Assembly: GCA_016926555.1 (NCBI GenBank)
Contig: JAFGOI010000004.1
Coordinates: forward strand, 776 to 64,775
Reading direction: 5' to 3'
DNA length: 64,000 nt
Source of the DNA: Patescibacteria group bacterium
GTDB taxonomy: Bacteria > Patescibacteriota > WWE3 > UBA101185 > UBA10185
Position numbers and translations under genes: made by a program. The notes beneath the pieces were generated by a model. It was not told the origin of the DNA and did no database searches. It saw only the letters and a program-made list of their open reading frames with translations. Shown piece after piece: positions 7,335 to 26,290 of this stretch; positions within the stretch are counted from its first letter, which is position 1; each line of letters begins with the position of its first letter.

Positions 7335-7410
7335 GGCCCCATCGTCTAGTGGCCTAGGACGTCAGGTTCTCATCCTGGAAACCGGGGTTCGATTCCCCGT
7401 GGGGTCACCA
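7335..7410 (+). tRNA. tRNA-Glu (anticodon CUC)
   Basis: A 76-nt cloverleaf. The 7-bp acceptor stem is GGCCCCA/UGGGGUC and the D arm is GUCU/GGAC. The anticodon stem UCAGG/CCUGG carries the loop UUCUCAU. The T arm is GGGGU-UCGAUUC-CCCCG, followed by an encoded CCA. Confidence 0.8.
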
Positions 7411-19938: not shown

Positions 19939-20127
19939 TTACTCTGCGTTTTCGAGCATTGCGGTTGCCGCGTTCAGTTTCACTTGTAAGTCATCAACCC
20001 GTGACTGTAAGTGGCGCGTTTTACTGGCTGCTGCGAAGAGGAGTGTTCCGAGCATAAGTATAAGTACGATAAGGACTGCAAAAAAAGTTTCACTTATAGT
20101 TACTTTCCTTTTTCTTCTCCAAAACAT
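19939..20127 (-). CDS. Hypothetical small single-TM protein (62 aa)
   Basis: An ORF with a TM segment (FFAVLIVLILMLGTLLFAAA) and a coiled-coil-like C-terminus. Confidence 0.3.
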   Translation of the reverse strand: MFWRRKRKVTISETFFAVLIVLILMLGTLLFAAASKTRHLQSRVDDLQVKLNAATAMLENAE

Positions 20128-20170: not shown

Positions 20171-21412
20171 TTATTTGGGGTTCTTGAATTCGAGAGTGTC
20201 AAACATTAAATTTACTGTTTTTTCAAATTCTTCCCCGGAAATATTTTTAATTGCGAAAATCAATATACCGTTATATTGACCGTCTTTTAGAGCAGGCATT
20301 TCGATATAGATATATATGTTTCCCTCCCAGGAGTAGCCATTTAAAATATAAGCATTGCTGTCGTCTATTGTTATCTTTTCCTCTTCCGTTTCTGGTTTGT
20401 ATCCTCTAACCACCACAAAATCGTCTATAAGTGTATTTTTTTGAGTTTCAATATATTTTTCAAACGTTGTCTCTTGGGGATTTATCGATTCCTGATAAAT
20501 ACTTACACCGTCAAATTTTAGTTTATCTACATATGTGTTTTTGTCGTATAAATTAACAACGTGTTTCAGGTTTTTGGATTTAGGTACTGTTATTTGGCAA
20601 CATTCCTGACTTAGCTTTGGGTGTACAAATTGGAAATACTTTTCAGGTGAAACATATGTTGTATATGGGCTTATTGGTCCGCTGTCACTGTCAGGATAAA
20701 ACCTTATTGAATGAAGCATTTGTTCGGTTGCCATTTTGTATTGCTGTCTGAAACCCAGATCCCCTTTGTATACTTGTGCGAACTCGTAATATGTATCAAA
20801 TTTATAGACGTAGTTTATTTTGTAGTCTTCGTCGCAGTTCGTAACCTCAAAAGTTTTTGCTGGCGTATCATGAATTACTGTGTCTGTAATTTTAGAATAG
20901 ATCGTACTATCGGGGCATCTCTTTTGATAACTTCCAAGTTTGATTTTGGCCACTTCTTCAAGGTTTCTTATGTTTGTTGAAAATGCGGAGACTCTAAAAA
21001 CGTAGCCCTCCAAACCCTGCTCACCCACATCATATATTATATCAACCCTTTTTGTAATATTTTCCTCGTCTATTTCCTCGATTTCTGCTGTTTTTGGATA
21101 CTCAAATGAGACCTTAAGGTCGTCGTTTTTATAGACACGCCACTCCATCTCTTTTTTGGGTTCTTCTTTACCTCCATTTTCCTCTTCCGATGGTGTTATG
21201 TCGACTATGATTGGCGGCTCCCGTTGTCGTGTAAGTTCTTTTACTACATAAAATGCTATTACTAATGCAATCCCTAAGCCTACAAGTAGTAGAAATAACT
21301 TCACAATTTTGAAGAATCTCTTTTTCTGCTGCTGAACTTCTTGTTCCTTCTCAATTAGCTCTTTGTCATCTAAGTTTGTAACTTCGGCTTTGTACAACTC
21401 TGATACGTGCAT
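20171..21412 (-). CDS. Hypothetical membrane-anchored extracytoplasmic protein (413 aa)
   Basis: A single N-proximal TM helix followed by a large soluble domain. No family recognised. Confidence 0.45.
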   Translation of the reverse strand: MHVSELYKAEVTNLDDKELIEKEQEVQQQKKRFFKIVKLFLLLVGLGIALVIAFYVVKELTRQREPPIIVDITPSEEENGGKEEPKKEMEWRVYKNDDLKVSFEYPKTAEIEEIDEENITKRVDIIYDVGEQGLEGYVFRVSAFSTNIRNLEEVAKIKLGSYQKRCPDSTIYSKITDTVIHDTPAKTFEVTNCDEDYKINYVYKFDTYYEFAQVYKGDLGFRQQYKMATEQMLHSIRFYPDSDSGPISPYTTYVSPEKYFQFVHPKLSQECCQITVPKSKNLKHVVNLYDKNTYVDKLKFDGVSIYQESINPQETTFEKYIETQKNTLIDDFVVVRGYKPETEEEKITIDDSNAYILNGYSWEGNIYIYIEMPALKDGQYNGILIFAIKNISGEEFEKTVNLMFDTLEFKNPK

Positions 21413-21450
21413 ATCTAAATGTTATAGAAAACTTTAGGTGGAAGCAAATG

Positions 21451-23574
21451 CTAGGATAATTCCGGCATTTTTTCTAGTGAAGACATTACGAACATGACAT
21501 GTTCGCCGAAATCTACGCCGAGTTTATCTATCCCGTAAGATATTTCGTTTCTATCAACCTTTGCGGCGAAAGCCTTATCTTTGAACTTCTTTTTTATGGA
21601 TTTCGCGTTCATGCCTGAAAAACCTTCAGGTCTCATTAAGTAATAGGCGTATAATAGCCCGGCCAGTTCGTCTATTGCGATCAAAGCGGCCGCCAATTTA
21701 GTTTTTGGTTCTATTCTAGGTTCTTTTATTGAATGGGCTCCAACGGCGTTTATAAGATTTTTATCGTAACCCAATTTCTTAAACCATTTTATGCTCTCAT
21801 CGGGATGTTCATCAGGGTACTCGAAGTAGTCCAGATCATGAAGCAGGCCGGTTACATACCACAGATCCGCATTTTCGTTCAACTTTTCCGCATAATCGGC
21901 CATTACTTTTGCCACCATCTTTGCGTGTAATAATTGGTATTCATCTTTGACATGTTTCTCTAGTAAATCCAAGGCCTCTTCCCGTGACGGGATGATAGTA
22001 CCTTCCTCACTGTTGCTGCTCGAGGTGCTATCTGGCTTGGGTTTAGTTTCGGTTATTTCCGTTTCATTGTTGCCCAGACCGTATATTTTCTTTGTAGTTT
22101 CATCGTATTTATATTTCATTTGCGGGAATAAAGTGCCTTCTCTACTTGTTACATCTTCAAGAAACCAAAAGACTCTTTCGCTAACGCCCATACCTGTTAC
22201 TGGCGGCATTCCGTATTCAAGCATTTCTACAAAGTCTATGTCCAGCATCTGTGCTTCCTTGTCCCCCGCGTCCCGTGCTCGTTGCTGCTCTAAAAATCGT
22301 TCTAATTGATCCTGTGGATCGTTGAGTTCTGTGTACCCGTTTCCGAGTTCACTGCCAGCGATTATTGGCTGGAATCTTTCAGTTAGTGCTTCGTTATCAG
22401 TTTTTGACTTAGCAAGAGGAGATATGAATTTTGGTATATTTATAAGATATACAGGCCCTGCTATTTCCTTTCTTATAAGTTTCCATAAGTTATCTACTAT
22501 GCGTGTTTTACCTGCTCCCTTTGGAAGGCTGATGTCGTTTTTTTCTAAGATGGAAAGCATTTTGCTTTCTGGATCTTTGAAGATGTCAACGTCAAATTTA
22601 TCGGCTATCGCAGTTGCGTAGTCTAGCTCTTCCCATTTATCAGCTAGATCGAACTCCATTCCCCTTCTTGAAAATTTCGTTGTGCCGTATACTTCCTTTG
22701 CTAGGAATCTATACAACTCCGTTACCAGTTTCATGTTGTCTCGGTAGTTTGCATAAGCCCAGTACCATTCAAGTTGATAAAACTCCTGGAGGTGTTCGTC
22801 GTCGATTCCCTCATTTCTGAAATTAGGACCTAATGTGTATACTTTCTCAAACCCTCCGCCCACTAATCTTTTTAGATAAAGTTCTGTGGAGATTCTTAAG
22901 TAAAAATTCTGATCTAAAGCGTTGTGATAAGTCACAAATGGCGCAGCGTCTGCTCCGCCTGTAACAAGTTCCAGCACAGGGGTTTCTACTTCCATGAAGC
23001 CGTTACTCCCCATGAATTCTCTGCATTTTTTCCAAAAGATCGCTTTTCTTCCAAATAGCTCTTTTATTTCAGGATTTATTATCAAGTCAAGATAGCGCCT
23101 TCTAAATCTTGTTTCCTTGTCCTTTAAACCTTCATGTTGGTCTGGAAGCGGCCTTAGGGATTTAGTTAGAATTTTGACTTCTACCACTTCTAAAGATATC
23201 TCACCGCTTTTGGTTTTTGTTACAGTACCTTTTGCTTGGATAAAGTCTCCAGCATCAAGGAGTTGAAGGTCAGAAAAACCAATTGTCTGACTGTTTTTAT
23301 CTGTGTCCTGGTTTATATTCTCCTTTTTGAGATATAGCTGAATTTTTCCACTGGCATCACGTATATCGAGGAACAAAATAGGCCCATGTTCTCTTAGAGA
23401 TATTATTCTTCCGCAGATGTGTAGTTCTTCGTTCTCATATTTAGCAAAATCTTGAGAAATATCACTGTTGTTTACATCCTTGATGCTCTCAGATGGAAAT
23501 GGATTGATTCCCAGCTCTACTAGTTTATTAAGTTTTTCTATTCTAATATCTCTAAGATCTTTTAGAGTTGACAT
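21451..23574 (-). CDS. lysS: Lysine--tRNA ligase (class II) fused to a C-terminal HD-domain phosphohydrolase (YqeK-like)
   Basis: The N-terminal ~500 aa have the class II LysRS motifs (FRNEGID, GGADA, GMGVSERVFWFL). After a TKPKPDSTSSSNSEE linker comes a ~200-aa domain with H...HD (LLHAKMVA...GLLHDLDY). Confidence 0.85.
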   Translation of the reverse strand: MSTLKDLRDIRIEKLNKLVELGINPFPSESIKDVNNSDISQDFAKYENEELHICGRIISLREHGPILFLDIRDASGKIQLYLKKENINQDTDKNSQTIGFSDLQLLDAGDFIQAKGTVTKTKSGEISLEVVEVKILTKSLRPLPDQHEGLKDKETRFRRRYLDLIINPEIKELFGRKAIFWKKCREFMGSNGFMEVETPVLELVTGGADAAPFVTYHNALDQNFYLRISTELYLKRLVGGGFEKVYTLGPNFRNEGIDDEHLQEFYQLEWYWAYANYRDNMKLVTELYRFLAKEVYGTTKFSRRGMEFDLADKWEELDYATAIADKFDVDIFKDPESKMLSILEKNDISLPKGAGKTRIVDNLWKLIRKEIAGPVYLINIPKFISPLAKSKTDNEALTERFQPIIAGSELGNGYTELNDPQDQLERFLEQQRARDAGDKEAQMLDIDFVEMLEYGMPPVTGMGVSERVFWFLEDVTSREGTLFPQMKYKYDETTKKIYGLGNNETEITETKPKPDSTSSSNSEEGTIIPSREEALDLLEKHVKDEYQLLHAKMVAKVMADYAEKLNENADLWYVTGLLHDLDYFEYPDEHPDESIKWFKKLGYDKNLINAVGAHSIKEPRIEPKTKLAAALIAIDELAGLLYAYYLMRPEGFSGMNAKSIKKKFKDKAFAAKVDRNEISYGIDKLGVDFGEHVMFVMSSLEKMPELS

Positions 23575-23640: not shown

Positions 23641-24117
23641 TTAGTACTTGATGGTAAGAATAGTGTAGGTCAGTATTCCAACAGGAGCTTCCACTTCTAT
23701 TTTATCGCCCACTTTTTTACCATATAACGCCTCTCCAAGGGGTGACTGATGTGATATTTTCCTGTTCATTGGGTCGGCCTCCAGAGGACCTACTATATGG
23801 AATTCCTCTTCGTCGCCATCAATATGTACGGTTACCCTGCAACCCACATCGACGCTGTCTTTCGTTGCTCCTTCTGATACTTTTGAATGTTTGATTATAT
23901 CTTCCAATTCGGCAATTCTCCCTTCGATGAGAGCCTGTTCTTGACGCGCAGAGTCATATAGAGAGTTTTCAGAAATATCTCCCATATCCCTAGCTTCTTT
24001 TATTTTTTGGGCTGATTCAGGTCTTTTAGCTTCCTTAAGTTCCTTTAATTCAGCTTTTAATTTCTCCAAACCCGCTCTAGTTATGTATACATAGTCTGGT
24101 TGATTCATATAATACAT
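23641..24117 (-). CDS. greA: Transcription elongation factor GreA
   Basis: A 158-aa protein with an N-terminal coiled coil and a C-terminal FKBP-like domain (VTVHIDGDEEEFHIVGP). Confidence 0.85.
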   Translation of the reverse strand: MYYMNQPDYVYITRAGLEKLKAELKELKEAKRPESAQKIKEARDMGDISENSLYDSARQEQALIEGRIAELEDIIKHSKVSEGATKDSVDVGCRVTVHIDGDEEEFHIVGPLEADPMNRKISHQSPLGEALYGKKVGDKIEVEAPVGILTYTILTIKY

Positions 24118-24367: not shown

Positions 24368-26290
24368 ATGAGAAGAGATGTATTACAGAGCATAACAAAG
24401 GTATATTTTCCGAGTGTTCCTCGGAATAATCTCAAGAAGGCTTTACTGGAGATAATTCAGGACTTGATTAACGATTTAGAAGCTGATTGGGATTACAATG
24501 CGATTAGGTACGAGACAGTAATGACAAAAAAAGAGTGGAATGATTATTCTCAACATCCTGAGCGAAAAAAATACAAATCCAAGCGGTTGGCAAATATGAG
24601 TTTGTCCGACAGATATAAATACGTTTTTGAGTTTCTTTCGTACATATTTCCATACTATAACTCTCTTAGAAAATCTGAATATAAAAACAAGCTTAAGCTT
24701 GGTATATCGGCGTTGATTACTTGTACGTTGAATGGTCGTTATGAAATAGAGAATATTAGAATGGCTGATACCTATGTTGGAAGATCAGCTGAGGATCGTG
24801 ATGCAGGTATCGTAAATCCTACGGCACCCACAAAATACAGAATAGAGTATGCATTGAGTGAATATTGTAAGTTGTCCGGTAAAAATATTAAGAGGTTGTC
24901 GGATAGAATATCCAAGGTTTCACAAGATAGGCCAGATATATTGGTTGAGTATTACGTCACTTGCGATATCGATCCTGAGTTTCGGGAGGACATAAGACAG
25001 ATAATGAAAGTTTTGGGGAGAGACTTAACCTTATCTTTTTATAATATTAAGCTTGGTTGGGAAATATGGAAGGATATGCGGAAAATTGGGATGGACGTTG
25101 AAAAGTTTCTGGAGTTTAATGAATTTCCTTCCTATTCAAAGGTTAAGGAAAAACTGTTAAATTTTCTTGTAAGAGGAGATTACGTAGAGGAGCTTGAAAA
25201 GCACATGAAAGATGATCTACCTGAGTGTTACAAGGACTATCAGAAATCAGGCTACGTCTTTATTAAAGATATATTTGCAGAGGAGGCGAAAAGAAAAAAG
25301 TATCCTAAGAAGCTAAGATCGATTGAAGAAGTTAAGGCGATGATTAAGGAGGCTGAAAAGGAGGTTTTGTCGTATTTTCCTCTGACAAAGAGAAAATCCC
25401 CAAGAAATACAATTTTTAATCCTCTTCATCCCGCGTCAACAATGAGGGCTTTTCAGTCAAGTACAAGAAATTCGAAAGGGAAAAGAGTTAACAGCATTGT
25501 TATGACGCCAAGAACAGAATTGCTTGACGAATACCTGCCTATTTTGGCGCATGAGACTGCACATGCCGTGCATAAAATGGTATTAGAGCTCGGTGAGGAA
25601 GCAGGTATACTTGAAAAGGGGGCGTCAGAATTGGTCCCAACAGCTGTTCTGGAGGACTTTTCTCAATTAGTTGAAGGTCAGTTTCATTCCGACAAAAAAC
25701 TTCCATATAAGAAGAAGTTCCACGGAAAAGAGTTCCCCAACTTTCACTCGGGTTTAACCCAAAGGAGTCAGGTGCCGTATGCGCTTGTGCAACTTGGGAT
25801 AAGAAAATACTTTGATAAGATTTGGGATGAGGGATATCGCACCTTTTTGACAGATCAGATGGTTTGGGAGATAAAAGAGATGTTTGATCCCTTGATTAAA
25901 GAGTGTGCCGAAATGGGGCTTCATATACGTCGTGATGTATATGATTCGCTTGGATATTTTTCTGCGGAAAATCCAGGAGATGGGTTAGTTTATATGAAGA
26001 AGTATGTGGTGGATTCCCCGAAAAGTGTTGCCAAGACAATGGACGAGGAAGAACAGTCTGTAGGAAATGCAGATACTGTTTCAGATATATCTATGTCCTC
26101 GGCGTTTGAAAAGAAATATGGTAAAAACTGGATTTCTAACAAAGAAGCTCGTATTACCCTACTGTGGCTATTATTGGAGTCAGGGAGAAATTCGGCTACC
26201 GAGACCTTCCATAAATATATTTTGACCGGTAATATTGGTAATTTCTTGGGGGAGTTAAAAGCAATCCGCGTTGAAGAGTTCCAGATATAG
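24368..26290 (+). CDS. Hypothetical 640-aa cytoplasmic protein with an HExxH motif (LAHETAHAVH), possible zincin-like metallopeptidase
   Basis: No signal peptide. An HExxH motif with downstream Glu residues. No family recognised with confidence. Confidence 0.45.
   Translation: MRRDVLQSITKVYFPSVPRNNLKKALLEIIQDLINDLEADWDYNAIRYETVMTKKEWNDYSQHPERKKYKSKRLANMSLSDRYKYVFEFLSYIFPYYNSLRKSEYKNKLKLGISALITCTLNGRYEIENIRMADTYVGRSAEDRDAGIVNPTAPTKYRIEYALSEYCKLSGKNIKRLSDRISKVSQDRPDILVEYYVTCDIDPEFREDIRQIMKVLGRDLTLSFYNIKLGWEIWKDMRKIGMDVEKFLEFNEFPSYSKVKEKLLNFLVRGDYVEELEKHMKDDLPECYKDYQKSGYVFIKDIFAEEAKRKKYPKKLRSIEEVKAMIKEAEKEVLSYFPLTKRKSPRNTIFNPLHPASTMRAFQSSTRNSKGKRVNSIVMTPRTELLDEYLPILAHETAHAVHKMVLELGEEAGILEKGASELVPTAVLEDFSQLVEGQFHSDKKLPYKKKFHGKEFPNFHSGLTQRSQVPYALVQLGIRKYFDKIWDEGYRTFLTDQMVWEIKEMFDPLIKECAEMGLHIRRDVYDSLGYFSAENPGDGLVYMKKYVVDSPKSVAKTMDEEEQSVGNADTVSDISMSSAFEKKYGKNWISNKEARITLLWLLLESGRNSATETFHKYILTGNIGNFLGELKAIRVEEFQI

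Follow-up and report, generated by a model that had tools for sequence, protein, structure and literature searches.

A lysyl-tRNA synthetase fused to an HD-type phosphohydrolase domain in candidate phyla radiation bacteria

The lysS–HD gene and its product

The window analysed here is a 64-kb stretch of DNA (64,000 nt) from a Patescibacteria group bacterium of the WWE3 lineage (contig JAFGOI010000004.1, positions 776 to 64,775). On its minus strand, at 21451..23574, lies an uninterrupted open reading frame (ORF) of 2,124 nt that starts with ATG and encodes 707 amino acids followed by a stop codon (21451–21453). The ORF list and the Pfam and NCBIfam domains identify it as a fusion of lysS, the gene for lysyl-tRNA synthetase (LysRS), with an HD domain: a complete class II LysRS (residues 1 to ~487) is followed by a short helix, a linker (~501–528) and the HD domain (~529–707). 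The gene encodes a genuine and probably bifunctional protein, a class II LysRS that carries an HD phosphohydrolase on a flexible tether of ~30 residues. A preliminary description, drawn from the sequence alone, had noticed that the ORF runs ~200 amino acids beyond a canonical LysRS, which is borne out, Pfam and NCBIfam both placing an HD domain in the extra part. The interval it had singled out (21451–22050) corresponds to residues 509–707, that is, half of the linker plus the HD domain. Its interpretation as a whole is partly supported.

The synthetase part begins with an anticodon-binding oligonucleotide-binding (OB) fold at residues 53–136 (23167..23418, minus strand, as for all features of this gene), which matches PF01336 (tRNA_anti-codon) with 50.3 bits and is beta-rich in the full-length structure model, with a predicted local distance difference test score (pLDDT) above 90. 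The class II catalytic core spans residues 152–486 (22117..23121; PF00152, tRNA-synt_2, 221.5 bits). Motif 2 reads F252-R253-N254-E255 and motif 3 reads G461..G463..E466-R467; across 65 fused homologues F252, R253, N254, E255, E466 and R467 are invariant and G461 and G463 are conserved in at least 90%. The end of the core carries the string already picked out in the preliminary description, GMGVSERVFWFL...TLFPQMK, at residues 461–487. Over residues 7–488 the protein scores 467.6 bits with the NCBIfam lysS model TIGR00499 (cutoff 427.6), which assigns it as lysine--tRNA ligase, and 508.2 bits with NF001756 (PRK00484; cutoff 468). By these curated models, by motifs 2 and 3 and by its OB domain, the protein is a class II LysRS.

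A conserved short helix follows the core at residues 488–500 (22075..22113), with the consensus K.D..TKEIY.L in the conservation profile and a helix at 492–498 in the model. It is also present in LysRS of WWE3 relatives in which the HD domain is a separate gene (alignment reaches residue 495). Beyond it, residues ~501–528 (21991..22074) form a low-complexity flexible linker, as judged from the conservation profile and pLDDT. This had been described as Ser/Thr-rich and is, in addition, rich in Glu and Lys. The linker is unconserved (mean top-residue frequency of 0.15 among fused homologues), and the helix and linker together (the equivalent of residues 488–528) vary from 25 to 78 amino acids, with a median of 37. 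The full-length AlphaFold model (pLDDT 88.8; predicted template modelling score (pTM) 0.69) has two confident domains, and residues 505–524 are disordered in it (pLDDT below 50), which suggests a flexible tether, not a rigid dock.

The HD/HDIG-type phosphohydrolase domain occupies residues ~529–707 (21454..21990). PF01966 matches at residues 550–638 with 37–40 bits (gathering cutoff 22), which confirms the HD domain that had been proposed for the C terminus. The HDIG model TIGR00277 matches with 31.5–34.7 bits (cutoff 27.6) and recognises all 46 members of an alignment of stand-alone relatives, and the literal HDIGK motif reads HDLDY in the window protein. The motif strings first read from the sequence are all in place: LLHAKMVAKVMADYAEKL (548–565), GLLHDLDY (576–583), AVGAHS (610–615) and AIDELAG (633–639). 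In the 46-sequence alignment H550, H579-D580, D582, H590-P591, H614, D635-E636 and G639 are invariant. The first conserved His of the HD signature, His550 (codon 21925..21927), is likewise invariant in the 65 fused proteins and in the N-terminal versions found in Bacteroidota, and in the same homologue sets the HD doublet, Asp582 and the His-Pro of the segment H579-D580-L-D582-Y583...H590-P591 (21805..21840) are invariant. The invariant His614 lies in the AHS motif (21733..21735), and D635-E636, the last acidic element of the signature, in the IDELAG motif (21667..21672). A conserved basic patch follows, K662-K663-x-K665-D666-x-x-F669-A670-x-x-x-x-R675 (21550..21591). In the fused set K662, K663, K665, F669, A670 and R675 are invariant and D666 is nearly so, and Bacteroidota proteins show conservative K/R and D/N swaps. 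The patch is a candidate binding site for phosphate or backbone.

A model of the domain alone is all-helical and confident (pLDDT 96, pTM 0.92), and its fold matches structures of the HD superfamily only. Membership in the superfamily is thus indicated by a PF01966 score over its cutoff, by the conserved H...HD...D signature and by the HD fold of the model. A Foldseek search of the domain model against the PDB returned nothing below E 1e-3, and PDB sequence searches with the domain and with the family profile returned nothing below E 0.6, the best profile match being PgpH (E 0.72). The HD domain is therefore a distinct, uncharacterised HDIG-type subfamily without a solved relative. We infer that it is an active metal-dependent phosphohydrolase, because the set H550, H579-D580, D582, H590, H614 and D635-E636 is invariant.

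A fusion of this kind could in principle be made by a frameshift or misassembly joining lysS to a downstream HD gene, a concern raised in the preliminary description. WWE3 relatives in which lysS and the HD gene stand 1 nt apart lend it some colour, as do the few metagenome-assembled genomes (MAGs) in which lysS–HD genes are broken elsewhere (L005 and L030). The DNA is, however, in frame throughout the junction region (21380–22140), and the linker is a continuous reading frame. An identical protein is deposited at NCBI (MBN1162200.1, 'lysine--tRNA ligase [Patescibacteria group bacterium]', on a 288-kb contig), and another occurs in an independent Logan assembly, on a contig of run SRR13394437. 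A full-length search recovered at least 119 further clusters with the same architecture (685–749 amino acids, with one truncated at 653; 52–63% identity), most of which carry precomputed PF01336, PF00152 and PF01966 matches; these come from many samples and assemblers, and their in-frame linkers differ in length. The C-terminal domain aligns in all 120 of the best full-length homologues, at 36–65% identity, and because every one of them carries it, chance or assembly error is excluded as the source of the architecture. We reject the artefact explanation, for which the chance left is vanishingly small. Both broken genes lie on MAG contigs and are divided midway through the LysRS catalytic core (L005:3907-6014, into 347 + 337 amino acids; L030:2412-4543, into about 448 + 299); these breaks are probably frameshifts, pseudogenes or assembly errors, not natural splits.

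Distribution and genomic setting

C-terminal fusions occur in Roizman-, Woese-, Dojka- and Yanofskybacteria and in WWE3. Among the fused homologues conservation is about as high in the HD domain as in the LysRS core but not in the linker, which indicates selection on both domains. Taken by itself, the C-terminal domain is closest to stand-alone proteins of ~180 amino acids from WWE3 and Dojkabacteria (51–67% identity). In the WWE3 split form, a 180-amino-acid HD gene begins 1 nt after the stop codon of a 501-amino-acid lysS, in another frame, and the order greA-lysS-HD-...-serS is kept (24 contigs with the HD gene); the two genes look translationally coupled.

At least 592 species-representative genomes contain a relative, and locus architecture was read from the best 80 loci. 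C-terminal fusions account for 10 of these 80. In five more the HD gene adjoins or overlaps lysS or lies up to ~700 nt downstream of it (L010, L011, L013, L020 and L028), and in one a fused gene is broken inside the LysRS core (L030). At the remaining loci the HD gene lies elsewhere, in Opitutaceae, Saprospiraceae, Solirubrobacterales and Paceibacteria-type members of the candidate phyla radiation (CPR). Searched against 1.84 billion representatives, the HD family profile retrieved 229 clusters at E≤1e-30.

The opposite order, HD-LysRS, also exists as a real gene (P0320), found on two contigs. Twelve further clusters of this kind (13 in all), with 703–729 amino acids and full coverage, belong to Bacteroidota, and the carriers include the cultured Arcicella sp. 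DC2W and a Mucilaginibacter MAG. These N-terminal HD domains, like the other variants described below, keep the full set of the family's signature residues. These arrangements imply at least two separate origins of the fusion, one at each end of the synthetase. Together with the abutting and seemingly coupled split form, this is a strong genomic signal of joint function, and it amounts to strong evidence for a functional or physical partnership between LysRS and the HD domain. Separately, many Bacteroidota LysRS proteins (P0406-P0512) are ~575–590 amino acids long and have an extra precomputed PF14229 match, a lineage-specific extension unrelated to the HD domain.

Several genes place further domains between the synthetase and the HD domain: LysRS-tRNA_bind-HD (L007:1910-4576), LysRS-tRNA_bind-B3_4-HD (P0366), LysRS-NUDIX-HD (P0369) and LysRS-DUF2000-HD (P0247). 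LysRS-DUF2000 is also found with a separate HD gene (L013:1969-3990 and L028:1196-3256). In CPR bacteria the C terminus of LysRS is a hot spot at which domains are added. The NUDIX domain gives weak matches to a mixture of subfamilies (NudC, YtkD and RppH) and was assigned to none of them. Over its full length, the DUF2000 part is weakly similar to PDB 2gax (Atu0240; E 0.14), a structure with a PTH2-like fold; this would hint at a module of the aminoacyl- or peptidyl-tRNA hydrolase type. Away from LysRS, the HD domain is joined to an N-terminal MazG nucleotide pyrophosphohydrolase (P0322, 310 amino acids) and to Barstar, an RNase inhibitor (P0349, 279 amino acids), each seen in one 50%-identity cluster. 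Other members of 230–340 amino acids are mostly truncated LysRS-HD fragments or have N-terminal extensions without a Pfam match. Within the CPR, LysRS and the HD domain are commonly paired, and as an architecture the fusion is abundant, not rare.

In the window, greA (23641..24117, minus strand; GreA Pfam domains) lies directly upstream of lysS–HD in the same orientation, with a gap of 66 nt, and it precedes lysS in 12 related loci (conserved synteny). Downstream, after 38 nt, lies a gene for a 413-amino-acid protein of unassigned function (20171..21412, minus strand) that is anchored in the membrane by its N terminus (hydrophobic residues 39–57) and has no Pfam match on record. An ORF of this kind directly follows lysS–HD in the three closest fused loci (L012, L016 and L030; ~30% identity) and is absent from the other fused loci. 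The next ORF (19939..20127, minus strand) encodes 62 amino acids with one hydrophobic helix (15–33) and has no homologue in any related locus. The suggestion that these two ORFs are co-transcribed with lysS–HD agrees with their orientation and with a terminator scan that found none on the minus strand between these genes; for the 62-amino-acid ORF, membership in the unit is doubtful. Around the operon, promoter and terminator scans gave fewer sites than shuffled controls, and co-transcription is possible.

Divergent from greA lies a 640-amino-acid ORF (24368–26290, plus strand) that has no Pfam match on record and no homologue in related loci; it contains an HExxH-type motif (LAHETAHAVH) and may be an unclassified zinc metallopeptidase. 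Between ~9670 and 19878 is an envelope-glycan-type cluster with 3–4 S-adenosylmethionine (SAM) methyltransferases, an asparagine synthase-like protein (590 amino acids), a GT4 glycosyltransferase and an 813-amino-acid multi-pass membrane protein with a weak GT-C/AftD match, the Pfam assignments being taken from the matching Logan contig. From 24.4 to 58.3 kb nearly all ORFs of at least 180 amino acids are on the plus strand, with a strongly positive GC skew (0.15–0.33); upstream of ~24.2 kb ORFs run in both directions and the skew is negative or close to zero, so that the switch falls at the divergent region between greA and the 640-amino-acid ORF. By Rfam gathering thresholds and ARAGORN, a tRNA-Glu (CTC) at 7335–7410 (plus strand) is the sole RNA gene in the 64 kb, and the same searches found no rRNA in the window and no tRNA-Lys near lysS.

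Candidate substrates of the HD domain

LysRS is a leading producer of diadenosine tetraphosphate (Ap4A) and of the related Ap4N, and caps RNA in vitro (reviewed in PMC10148737). Our leading hypothesis, to which we assign a probability of roughly 0.4, is that the HD domain hydrolyses the dinucleoside polyphosphates made by LysRS. From lysyl-AMP and a nucleotide the synthetase would form phosphoanhydride by-products (Ap4A, Ap3A, Ap4N and related Np4 caps), and the tethered HD domain would destroy them at source, which would keep their levels low in small-genome CPR bacteria. The domain would then work like YqeK or ApaH without belonging to either family. Under this hypothesis LysRS would be the recurrent partner because it is a principal Ap4A producer. 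The NUDIX and MazG partners fit a nucleotide substrate, and the stand-alone members, at ~180 amino acids, resemble small-molecule HD hydrolases, which we also count in its favour.

Several observations pull the other way. The lysine of the HDxxK motif of YqeK, Lys62 in Streptococcus pyogenes, is needed for Ap4A cleavage (PMC11857287), and its place is taken by Tyr583 in the window protein and by Trp or Tyr in Bacteroidota members. Stand-alone HD genes in Opitutaceae, Saprospiraceae, Solirubrobacterales and many Paceibacteria have no lysS within 4 kb. In the 80 loci the stand-alone members have no informative conserved neighbour, the recurrences being shadow ORFs and lineage-local synteny; Pfam assigns the recurrent neighbours to SerRS, SDR, ApbE, a DDAH/ADI-like protein, an M20 peptidase and BacA. 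The NUDIX domain of LysRS-NUDIX-HD could itself be the Ap4A hydrolase and leave the HD domain another job, and the tRNA_bind, B3_4 and DUF2000 inserts are tRNA-handling or editing-like and point towards tRNA.

Two other kinds of substrate have to be weighed against dinucleoside polyphosphates. The HD domain might hydrolyse other nucleotides, such as (p)ppGpp or (p)ppApp alarmones, cyclic dinucleotides, non-canonical NTPs or dNTPs, or NMPs, with a link to LysRS that is regulatory or a matter of co-expression. We consider this doubtful but credible: two independent fusions to one synthetase, and genes in tight adjacency, would be surprising unless the partners shared a substrate, a product or a complex, the Pfam and NCBIfam scans list no match to an alarmone-hydrolase family (RelA/SpoT-type or small) or to a cyclic-dinucleotide phosphodiesterase family, and the structural matches are generic to the HD superfamily. 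Alternatively, the domain might act on the ends of tRNA(Lys) or other RNA, for example as a 2',3'-cyclic phosphodiesterase or phosphatase that mends damage at 3' ends or in the anticodon loop, so that the synthetase would repair and recharge its own tRNA. The tRNA_bind, B3_4 and DUF2000 inserts would suit such a role, and so would the structural resemblance to the GlyRS beta subunit described below; tRNA_bind, however, is a common synthetase appendage that may serve LysRS and not the HD domain, a need for tRNA-end repair in general would not explain why the partner is LysRS in particular, the stand-alone members of 180 amino acids have no RNA-binding module, and the NUDIX and MazG partners indicate nucleotides. 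On balance we regard action on RNA ends as rather unlikely. A more specific version is a long shot: in it the domain would heal tRNA(Lys) by removing the 2',3'-cyclic phosphates or 3'-phosphates left by nucleases, and the tRNA_bind, B3_4 and DUF2000 variants would be elaborated forms of an on-synthetase quality-control platform.

The resemblance to GlyRS also raises the question of whether the domain is catalytic at all. The top structural neighbour of the HD domain is the HD domain of the bacterial GlyRS beta subunit (PDB 7EIV, 7YSE, 8IE2 and 7XJY), at 13% identity, and the margin over nucleotide hydrolases is small (12.3 against 11.3–10.9). That domain no longer carries the His-Asp doublet (Ser393-Lys394 in Escherichia coli), takes part in binding of the tRNA acceptor arm or in allostery, and is a precedent for an HD fold that serves a class II synthetase (PMC8464048). 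It is nevertheless very improbable that the window protein has a non-catalytic tRNA-binding or allosteric module of this kind. In contrast to GlyRS beta, the LysRS-linked domain retains every putative metal ligand, H550, H579-D580, H590, H614 and D635 being invariant in CPR, Bacteroidota and stand-alone members, which makes a purely structural role unlikely.

If Ap4A or related NpnN prove to be the substrate, as in our leading hypothesis, the family would add a further bacterial dinucleoside-polyphosphate hydrolase to ApaH, YqeK and Nudix, and would be the first case with the main producer and a degrader of a debated alarmone on one polypeptide; it would bear directly on the question of whether Ap4A acts as a signal or arises as a by-product of damage. 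Whatever the substrate, coupling to LysRS offers a tangible clue to what this uncharacterised HD subfamily does, and the reverse-order fusion in cultured Arcicella makes the substrate question experimentally accessible.

Comparison with known systems

Synthetases with appended catalytic domains are known. The preliminary description did not recognise the present architecture as a described one, and likewise neither a LysRS-HD protein nor its HD subfamily turned up in the full-text literature that we searched; a LysRS combined with an apparently active HD phosphohydrolase is, in that literature, undescribed. Database annotation of the fused proteins reads lysine--tRNA ligase only.

YqeK (COG1713, TIGR00488), the symmetrical Ap4A hydrolase of Firmicutes that converts Ap4A to 2 ADP, had been proposed as the type of the HD domain. 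We reject membership in that family on model score, on the replaced lysine and on fold neighbours. Neither the window protein (searched to E≤1) nor any of the 46 family members (searched to E≤10) matched TIGR00488 (cutoff 70.15), whereas a positive control, a Bacillus subtilis-type YqeK sequence validated by this score alone, reached 284.6 bits. Aligned by hhalign with the control, the HD family profile reached 30.7% probability over its first 52 columns only, and the YqeK structures (PDB 2O08, 2OGI, 3CCG and 8WMY) are not the nearest fold neighbours of the domain. The YqeK of S. pyogenes coordinates two metals: the ligands of metal A are H29, H58, D59 and D135, and those of metal B are D59, H91 and H117 (PMC11857287). 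The window protein has six invariant candidate ligands in the same H, HD, H, H, D order (H550, H579, D580, H590, H614, D635) but with a different spacing, its third His lying 10 residues after the HD doublet, as in the rest of the LysRS-linked family, against 32 in YqeK. D582, EHP, DE..G and KKK.KD..FA....R are motifs special to the LysRS-linked family and unlike YqeK, and the partner gene differs as well, being typically nadD for YqeK and lysS here. The HD domain is not a member of YqeK, but it may still carry out YqeK-like chemistry.

Other HD proteins offer further parallels. A predicted HD hydrolase of an uncultured Thermotogales bacterium (PDB 2PQ7) has 16% identity to the domain, is undetectable by sequence and has no known link to LysRS. 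In the CCA-adding enzyme of E. coli, the HD domain acts as a 2',3'-cyclic phosphodiesterase and phosphatase on tRNA 3' ends. Like the fusion described here, that enzyme has a catalytic HD domain appended to an enzyme of the tRNA 3' end, and it is the model for the tRNA-repair alternative; the general family and fold scans, which included no dedicated comparison, gave no match to its HD domain. A parallel among LysRS proteins is mycobacterial LysX (MprF-LysRS, NF002821), also bifunctional, in which a complete LysRS and a second enzyme form one covalent chain. With the LysX model (cutoff 742) the window protein reaches 403.5 bits, over the LysRS part only. In LysX the partner is an N-terminal membrane lysyl-phosphatidylglycerol synthase that consumes Lys-tRNA, whereas in the window protein it is a soluble HD phosphohydrolase.

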